From the NCBI RefSeq assembly GCF_057098645.1, contig NZ_CM169472.1: DNA of 64,000 nt; one strand, 5' to 3'. The notes beneath the pieces are model-generated. The model saw nothing but the letters and a program-made list of their open reading frames with translations. It was not told the DNA's origin and did not search any database. Both the position numbers and the translations under genes were made by a program. Position 1 is the first letter of the stretch. Each line of letters opens with the position of its first letter. Below, in pieces: positions 10,736-19,523 of this stretch.

Positions 10736-12226
10736 ATGAAATTGCACCATAGAATGCTCCGGCATTTTATCGCCGCAAGTGTCATTGTGCTGACATCTTC
10801 CTTCCTTATTTTTGAACTTGTCGCCAGCGACAGAGCAATGAGTGCCTATCTGCGCTATATCGTGCAGAAAGCAGACTCCTCCTTTCTTTATGATAAGTAT
10901 CAGAATCAGAGTATTGCCGCGCATGTGATGCGCGCTCTCGCTGCTGAGCAGTCGGAAGTGTCGCCAGAACAGCGGCGCGCCATCTGCGAGGCTTTTGAGT
11001 CTGCCAATAATACCCATGGCTTAAACCTGACTGCCCATAAATACCCGGGCTTACGCGGCACACTACAAACCGCATCCACTGACTGCGACACAATTGTGGA
11101 AGCTGCAGCACTATTACCCGCTTTTGATCAGGCAGTGGAAGGCAACCGCCACCAGGATGATTACGGTTCAGGTCTTGGGATGGCCGAAGAGAAATTTCAC
11201 TATTATCTCGATCTCAATGACCGCTATGTCTATTTTTATGAGCCGGTTAATGTTGAATACTTTGCGATGAATAACTGGTCCTTCCTGCAGTCAGGAAGTA
11301 TTGGCATCGATCGCAAAGATATTGAAAAGGTATTTACCGGGCGTACCGTATTGTCGAGCATTTACCAGGATCAGCGTACTAAACAGAACGTGATGAGTTT
11401 GCTGACGCCGGTGTATGTTGCAGGGCAGCTAAAAGGGATTGTGCTGCTGGATATTAACAAAAACAATCTGCGGAATATCTTTTACACTCATGACCGCCCT
11501 CTCCTCTGGCGTTTTCTCAATGTCACGCTAACCGATACAGATTCGGGGCGCGACATTATCATCAACCAGAGCGAAGATAATCTGTTCCAGTATGTCAGTT
11601 ACGTCCATGACTTACCGGGCGGCATTCGTGTCTCGTTATCCATTGATATTCTTTACTTTATCACGTCTTCGTGGAAAAGCGTTCTGTTCTGGATTTTGAC
11701 GGCGTTAATTTTGCTGAATATGGTGCGGATGCACTTCCGCTTATACCAAAATGTGTCGCGAGAAAATATTAGTGATGCGATGACTGGACTGTATAATCGC
11801 AAAATTTTAACCCCTGAACTGGAGCAGCGGTTGCAGAAACTGGTGCAATCCGGTTCTTCGGTGATGTTTATTGCAATTGACATGGACAAGTTAAAGCTAA
11901 TAAATGACACCCTCGGTCATCAGGAAGGGGATTTAGCGATTACGTTGTTAGCTCAGGCGATTAAACAGTCGATTCGTAAAAGTGATTATGCCATCCGACT
12001 CGGTGGCGATGAATTCTGCATCATTCTTGTCGATTCGACGCCGCAAATTGCATCACAACTGCCTGAACGTATCGAAAAACGTCTGCAACATATCGCGCCG
12101 CAGAAAGAGATCGGCTTCTCTTCCGGTATTTACGCGATGAAAGAAAACGATACGTTACATGATGCGTATAAAGCTTCCGATGAGCGTTTATATGTCAATA
12201 AGCAGAACAAAAACAGCCGTTCATGA
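10736..12226 (+). CDS. yeaJ: Diguanylate cyclase YeaJ (intact GGDEF)
   Basis: Start ATG 10736 (MKLHHRML) after AAGGAG gives 496 aa; RLGGDEF present; ORF-track start 10556 is an upstream extension. Confidence 0.85.
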   Translation: MKLHHRMLRHFIAASVIVLTSSFLIFELVASDRAMSAYLRYIVQKADSSFLYDKYQNQSIAAHVMRALAAEQSEVSPEQRRAICEAFESANNTHGLNLTAHKYPGLRGTLQTASTDCDTIVEAAALLPAFDQAVEGNRHQDDYGSGLGMAEEKFHYYLDLNDRYVYFYEPVNVEYFAMNNWSFLQSGSIGIDRKDIEKVFTGRTVLSSIYQDQRTKQNVMSLLTPVYVAGQLKGIVLLDINKNNLRNIFYTHDRPLLWRFLNVTLTDTDSGRDIIINQSEDNLFQYVSYVHDLPGGIRVSLSIDILYFITSSWKSVLFWILTALILLNMVRMHFRLYQNVSRENISDAMTGLYNRKILTPELEQRLQKLVQSGSSVMFIAIDMDKLKLINDTLGHQEGDLAITLLAQAIKQSIRKSDYAIRLGGDEFCIILVDSTPQIASQLPERIEKRLQHIAPQKEIGFSSGIYAMKENDTLHDAYKASDERLYVNKQNKNSRS

Positions 12227-17950: not shown

Positions 17951-18097
17951 TGTTTCCTCACTTATCTGTTTTGCATTAGCGGGTTAGTCGCTGATAAAAA
18001 GCATAGCACAACATCGGGAGGGCAAGATTTGTGACGAGCATCACGGAGGATTTTTTTGCGATGGCGCAGAAATTGCGCCATCAACGATCAGTGATAA

Positions 18098-18280
18098 TTA
18101 CCAACCACAAACATCATGTTCGTTTTCCGTGTCATAAGAACGTACGGTATTCACCAGATCTTTTATCACTTCAGCCGCCTCTTCTGGCACCAGCAAAGTC
18201 ATCGGCGTCTCTGTTTCATAATCGACAGAAACGCCATTGCTGTTATTGGTGACGGTCACGGTATACGTTGCTTTGCTCAT
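18098..18280 (-). CDS. yoaG: DUF1869 protein YoaG
   Basis: 60-aa ORF, 3 nt downstream of yeaR on the same strand. Confidence 0.8.
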   Translation of the reverse strand: MSKATYTVTVTNNSNGVSVDYETETPMTLLVPEEAAEVIKDLVNTVRSYDTENEHDVCGW

Positions 18281-18283
18281 GAT

Positions 18284-18643
18284 TCATTTCCCGTTATGAA
18301 TGACTTTCCGTTGTTGCGCACCTTCCATCAGGACTTCAGGAGCCACGAAGAAGTCAATATTGAAATAAGTATCGTCAGTCATGGCTTCAATGTTGTGCCA
18401 CTTTTCTGGAGGGAACACCGCGAACTGCCCCGCTTCGATAAGGATCACCTGATCAGGCTCTGCACTGTGTTCATCAGCGTAGCCGAGATATTTGACCGCC
18501 CCATGCATAACGGAAAGGCGTGGGTAAACCCCCGGGCGCGTTCCTTTATCAAGATGACGTTCGAATATTCCGGCAGGCGCAGTTTGTTTATTCCAGAAAG
18601 GCGTTGAGCGCGTATGAATATAATTCTGTGGGATTTGCAGCAT
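18284..18643 (-). CDS. yeaR: DUF1971 protein YeaR
   Basis: 119-aa ORF recognised as YeaR. Confidence 0.85.
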   Translation of the reverse strand: MLQIPQNYIHTRSTPFWNKQTAPAGIFERHLDKGTRPGVYPRLSVMHGAVKYLGYADEHSAEPDQVILIEAGQFAVFPPEKWHNIEAMTDDTYFNIDFFVAPEVLMEGAQQRKVIHNGK

Positions 18644-18815
18644 CCTTTTCCCTCCTTCGGTGAATGCGCTGAAAACGGTTTATTCCAGCCGTTTCAGGGT
18701 ACGCCTGATAATTTGCATTTTAAATACCATTTATTGGTTACTTTTTAGCACCATATCAGAGAAGAATCAGGGAGGATTATAGATGGGAAGCCCGCGACAA
18801 CGCGGGCTGAAAGCA

Positions 18816-19523
<708 letters not shown>

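Follow-up and report, generated by a model that had tools for sequence, protein, structure and literature searches.

The window analysed here, a stretch of 64,000 nucleotides, is part of the E. coli chromosome and carries the gene order dgcP, yoaK, yoaJ, yeaQ, yoaG, yeaR, leuE, dmlR, dmlA, according to the RefSeq annotation of identical DNA and of K-12 MG1655. Positions 18000-19500 showed 100% identity to strain C325, and the same stretch matched 5,421 of 5,426 complete E. coli genomes. The start codon of yeaR lies at 18643 and the stop codon of leuE at 18816, both on the minus strand; therefore positions 18644-18815 are exactly the yeaR-leuE intergenic region, with the promoter on the minus strand. 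An earlier note on this DNA had named the operon yeaR-yoaG, and the annotation of identical DNA agrees, placing yeaR and yoaG downstream of the region and leuE upstream. The 172-bp intergenic region differs from that of K-12 at a single base, 18760, which is outside every mapped element, so that published K-12 results carry over directly. Features of the locus are collected in Table 1.

Table 1. Features of the yeaR-leuE region, in window coordinates; promoter positions are relative to the inferred transcription start.
Feature	Positions	Strand	Remarks
yoaG CDS (DUF1869 protein), second operon gene	18098..18280	-	ORF list and RefSeq annotation
yeaR CDS (DUF1971 protein), first gene of the regulated operon	18284..18643	-	ORF list and RefSeq annotation of identical DNA
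Shine-Dalgarno AGGAGG of yeaR	18651..18656	-	read from the sequence; 7 nt upstream of the ATG at 18643
5' UTR	18688-18655		mean identity of orthologues to window 47%
Inferred transcription start, G	18689	-	computed from NarL centre -43.5
Inferred -10 hexamer TACCCT (-12 to -7)	18696..18701	-	placed from the -43.5 anchor; mean orthologue identity 90%
NsrR operator, 11-1-11 inverted repeat, AAATGGTATTT-A-AAATGCAAATT on the yeaR strand	18710..18732	-	-43 to -21, centre 18721 (-32); from matrix, literature and orthologues
Downstream NsrR half-site AAATGCAAATT	18710..18720	-	10.4 bits; 2 bp overlap with the 3' end of the -35 hexamer, remainder in the promoter spacer
Inferred -35 hexamer TTTAAA (-35 to -30)	18719..18724	-	entirely inside the NsrR operator; mean orthologue identity 89%
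Upstream NsrR half-site AAATGGTATTT	18722..18732	-	11.3 bits; 18725-18732 common to the NarL site
NarL 7-2-7 activator site TAACCAATAAATGGTA	18725..18740	-	verbatim in window; published position -43.5
NarL site through -10 hexamer	18740-18696		mean identity of orthologues to window 75-92% across sub-blocks
Upstream variable stretch	18784-18747		mean identity of orthologues to window 37%
leuE	18816-19454	-	upstream of yeaR-yoaG

Promoter numbering was anchored on the published centre of the NarL site, and placement of the -35 hexamer assumes a 17-bp spacer. The NarL 7-2-7 site of yeaR was described as TAACCAATAAATGGTA, centred at -43.5, in a cryo-EM study of the NarL transcription activation complex (PMC10853779; also PMC7419079). 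This 16-mer matches the NarL consensus, two inverted TACYYMT heptamers 2 bp apart, at 10 of 14 positions, and several orthologues contain, in the corresponding upstream stretch, further 16-mers that fit this consensus as well or better. Sequence alone is for these reasons not diagnostic for the NarL site, and the membership of TAACCAATAAATGGTA rests on the published structure and genetics (PMC10853779, PMC7419079). Counting from the anchor, transcription is expected to start at a G, and the transcript on the cryo-EM scaffold likewise starts with G (PMC10853779). Where the window has its inferred -10 hexamer, Salmonella and some of the Citrobacter loci have TAACCT, and a few loci have TACTCT. 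TACCCT makes a weak -10 hexamer, which is to be expected when a promoter needs an activator. A scan of 18560-18900 for consensus sigma-70 promoters and for terminators found nothing, and the lack of a sigma-70 hit is again in keeping with dependence on an activator. On either side of the inferred transcription start lie the arms of an imperfect inverted repeat, TGAAAACGG (18670-18678) and CCGTTTCA (18689-18696); the repeat was seen in Escherichia only and is roughly what chance would produce.

The earlier note had also proposed, as a weak call, an NsrR-type operator in this promoter region, at about 18700..18725 and with one imperfect half-site. The 25-mer on which that proposal was based, ATAATTTGCATTTTAAATACCATTT, occurs once in the window, on the plus strand; its span, 18708-18732, is shifted rightwards by some 8 nt from the position given. 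Within it, positions 18710-18732 form an 11-1-11 inverted repeat matching AAGATGCATTT-N-AAATGCATCTT; the reverse complement of these positions, on the yeaR (minus) strand, is the 23-mer AAATGGTATTTAAAATGCAAATT. For scoring, a symmetrised log-odds matrix was constructed from 16 distinct ChIP-seq-positive NsrR sites (PMC5320621, Table 4), with the yeaR site left out to avoid circularity. With this held-out matrix the 23-mer scored 21.3-21.5 bits, inside the range of the training sites (13-30 bits), and ranked first among the 63,978 positions of the window, the runner-up reaching 11.9 bits. The per-position probability of such a score was 2e-8 against a uniform background, 5e-8 with intergenic composition and 4e-7 at 70% A+T. 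Similarly, in first-order Markov simulations of the intergenic region none of 20,000 reached the operator score (top simulated score, 19.6 bits).

Against the matrix consensus AAGTTGCATTT, the half-site that the earlier note called imperfect matches at 8 of 11 positions and the other at 9 of 11. This imperfection does not correspond to any real weakness: neither half-site is notably defective, because the halves score 11.3 and 10.4 bits. The sole strongly unfavourable base of the operator is at position 21 (-4.1 bits). An inverted-repeat finder did not report the NsrR palindrome, because its arms match at only 8 of 11 positions and lack a 6-nt exact seed. The weight-matrix scan for NsrR, suggested in the note as a check, placed the site well above the window background, and the identity of the published 23-mer (see below) supports the same assignment; to call it weak was too cautious, because no other NsrR match in the window comes close to it. 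Besides the operator, the matrix scan of the window found no NsrR site above 11.9 bits. Two of the next-best matrix hits, at 12045-12067 (11.9 bits) and 56189-56211 (10.1 bits), fall within the coding sequences of dgcJ and yebS and were set aside as background.

The same 23-mer is listed as the NsrR 11-1-11 site of yeaR by Mehta et al. 2015 (PMC5320621, Table 4), with a PatSer ln P of -17.05, 11th among the 27 sites listed in CFT073, and the same paper calls yeaR a known NsrR-regulated gene, citing Lin et al. 2007. Elsewhere the locus is described as being under the NarL and NsrR systems (PMC4959519), and yoaG is treated as a gene of the NsrR regulon in Salmonella (PMC7082413). Derepression in the absence of nsrR or upon exposure to NO is credited to Filenko 2007 and Lin 2007 by papers that cite them (PMC5320621, PMC7082413, PMC4959519). 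That nitrate activates the promoter via the NarL 7-2-7 site at -43.5 is well established, a cryo-EM structure included (PMC10853779). Anaerobic nitrate raised expression of yeaR 160-fold and of yoaG 168-fold in CFT073 (PMC5320621), increases that cannot separate NarL from NsrR. Regulation by NsrR and by nitrate, which the earlier note had mentioned, is accordingly found in the literature (PMC5320621, PMC4959519, PMC10853779). In K-12 the operator has the identical 23 bp at the identical position (NC_000913.3 1880015-1880037), so that the element is without any difference and the strain is what differs.

We conclude with high confidence that positions 18710-18732 are the operator through which the NO-sensing repressor NsrR shuts off the yeaR-yoaG promoter. 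The NsrR operator at yeaR is real, functional and already known, and nothing about it is new. Lin et al. 2007 reportedly documented by mutagenesis, as stated in their abstract, that the NsrR operator has its centre at -32, which is the position computed here; they are also reported to have observed loss of repression with point mutations in the operator that spared the NarL site and the -35 hexamer. The promoter is a textbook-level case of overlapping control by nitrate (NarL) and nitric oxide (NsrR), and the present finding means little for discovery; what is now supplied is a set of exact coordinates for annotating the window, and the true operator proved recoverable from the raw sequence. 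The yeaR-yoaG promoter is already in use as a nitrate-responsive part in engineered probiotics.

Because the repeat spans -43 to -21, the operator covers the whole -35 hexamer together with the promoter-proximal 8 bp (18725-18732) of the NarL site, and so overlaps core promoter elements, with numbering and start taken from the literature. With 14 of 23 positions lying within the NarL site or the -35 hexamer, the NsrR-like match could be incidental: the block would be kept only because it contains the -35 hexamer along with the NarL 7-2-7 site, and NO would induce the operon indirectly, for instance by way of an effect of nitrite or nitrate on NarL. Conservation of 75-90% in the rest of the spacer and in the -10 hexamer, too, agrees with this explanation. 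It is also in line with NsrR ChIP-seq of CFT073 grown in aerobic L broth, which gave no peak at yeaR, a result that the authors judge a probable false negative; yeaR is absent, as their text implies, from an earlier K-12 ChIP-chip list as well (PMC5320621). On the other hand, a score of 21.5 bits is unexpected by chance even in DNA of 70% A+T, and yeaR is a known NsrR target in the literature (PMC5320621, PMC4959519).

Comparison of orthologous promoters bears more directly on this alternative. A YeaR protein scan with one genome per species yielded 26 usable loci from Escherichia, Citrobacter, Salmonella and Silvania, one 234-bp fragment being left out. When their upstream regions were aligned, the segment running from the NarL site to the -10 hexamer was conspicuous for its conservation (Table 1). 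The best matrix hit scored 12.5-23.8 bits and lay 73-84 nt from the ATG in all 26 promoters, showing that the site is conserved upstream of the orthologous genes; the presence of nsrR was counted in E. coli, where 5,425 of 5,426 genomes carry it. The 60-nt core promoter was identical in 4,532 of 5,415 E. coli genomes. Much of the operator is shared with the NarL site and the -35 hexamer, elements that would be conserved in any case. The substitutions found in 12 distinct variants kept 235 bits, compared with 126 ± 15 bits for an equal number of random substitutions (0 of 20,000), bearing in mind that the variants are not phylogenetically independent and that the uniform null is simplistic. The same held, within these limits, at the nine spacer positions (18710-18718) outside the NarL site and the -35 hexamer, where 51.0 bits were kept versus 18.5 ± 10.4 bits at random (fraction 0.002), contrary to what would be expected if the NsrR match were a by-product of the other two elements.

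Two groups of orthologues separate the NsrR match from the NarL site. Silvania hatchlandensis (~1405-1430 of its locus) was the most distant orthologue found, with 72% protein identity and flanks that align poorly. Its promoter has no recognisable 7-2-7 site (≤9 of 14 by hand count), a single NarL-like heptamer, TACCACT, being present just upstream of the palindrome, and yet the palindrome itself, AAGTCGCATTTTAAATGCATTTT, is improved to 23.7 bits, better than the operator of the window. Citrobacter sedlakii, a Citrobacter MAG and C. amalonaticus (loci L007, L015 and L024; ~1400-1425) carry a different 7-2-7 sequence, TGCCCCTTTTGGTGTA, which matches 11 of 14 positions of the NarL consensus; in the same three lineages the upstream NsrR half is TTGGTGTATTT, and the whole-site score, 20.7-21.3 bits, is essentially unchanged. 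With TGCCCCTTTTGGTGTA in place and the NsrR score kept, both overlapping sites outlived sequence turnover in these lineages. The Silvania promoter, the Citrobacter variants and the pattern of substitutions point to NsrR-specific constraint beyond that imposed by the NarL site and the -35 hexamer, as judged from sequence comparison, and we consider an incidental match highly improbable. In the three Citrobacter lineages the region upstream of TGCCCCTTTTGGTGTA also differs from that of the window.

Repression by NsrR through 18710-18732 also has to be weighed against a palindrome that serves mainly another protein, whether Fis, another A+T-preferring nucleoid protein or IscR, a paralogue of NsrR. 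The region is A+T-rich, and Squire et al. 2009, to judge from the title under which the paper is cited (PMC7419079), reported that Fis represses the yeaR promoter. Rapidly growing cells contain abundant Fis. Its footprint at this promoter reportedly overlaps the NarL site. By eye, however, no 15-bp G...C Fis core spans the palindrome, and neither of the published IscR motifs fits it. A Fis site would, moreover, supplement binding of NsrR rather than replace it, and the match is highly specific to a matrix derived from NsrR ChIP sites only. That the palindrome is mainly the target of another protein is accordingly, in our estimation, highly improbable, and we retain NsrR as the protein that acts there.

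The yeaR operator resembles those of ytfE, hcp and hmp in its 11-1-11 architecture, its ATTT-N-AAAT centre and its G(C/T)A core, all of them repressing genes of NO stress, and its score of 21.5 bits is comparable to that of the hmp operator (21.2 bits). It differs from the three in its weaker outer positions, AAATG and AAATT standing in place of the AAGTT and AACTT of the consensus, and in overlapping an activator site. Given this overlap, NsrR may act as an anti-activator at yeaR besides blocking the -35 region. Like yeaR, ogt is activated by NarL only: the two promoters share a single 7-2-7 site abutting the -35 region, activation independent of FNR and counter-regulation by Fis (PMC7419079, PMC10853779). 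Unlike yeaR, ogt has been described with tandem NarL sites, and the literature examined mentions no NsrR operator for it.

The geometry of the overlap was read from the sequence; the mechanism set out here is deduced from it and from how NsrR, an iron-sulfur-cluster protein belonging to the Rrf2 family, and NarL are known to behave. With a holo-NsrR dimer in place on -43 to -21, RNA polymerase would be kept away from the -35 region, and phospho-NarL would face a competitor that excludes it from the promoter-proximal heptamer of its site. The weak promoter would need phospho-NarL as its activator. Upon exposure to NO, damage to the NsrR cluster would cause the repressor to leave the DNA. Nitrate or nitrite would, for its part, lead to phosphorylation of NarL through NarX or NarQ, and phospho-NarL could then recruit RNA polymerase via the C-terminal domain of the alpha subunit (PMC10853779). 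Release of NsrR and activation by NarL would thus integrate two signals, nitrate or nitrite via NarL and NO via NsrR, and the operon would be expected to fire fully only when both are sensed.

Two modest extensions can be put forward tentatively, although we think neither likely to hold. One is that the NsrR operator is older and that the NarL site was overlaid on it later, within the enterobacteria; this order is suggested by Silvania, which keeps an improved palindrome without a 7-2-7 site, and by the three Citrobacter lineages, which swapped the 7-2-7 site with the NsrR score unchanged. The other is a three-way competition among NsrR, NarL and Fis over ~30 bp (18710-18740). If this were true, high occupancy by Fis in rich aerobic medium could explain why genome-wide ChIP experiments have repeatedly missed NsrR at yeaR.

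At the far end of the intergenic region, AGCCCGCG-n4-CGCGGGCT at 18789-18808 forms a perfect stem of 8 bp, only a few bases beyond the stop codon of leuE on its 3' side. The stem lacks a T-run, and the terminator scan gave no hit there. The stem is kept in Citrobacter and Salmonella with changes on both arms (GGCCCGC/GCGGGCC; GACCCG/CGGGTC), which suggests a conserved stem-loop at the 3' end of leuE. Between this hairpin and the NarL site, positions 18747-18784 are highly variable even among Escherichia species, and the single K-12 difference, at 18760, lies within them.
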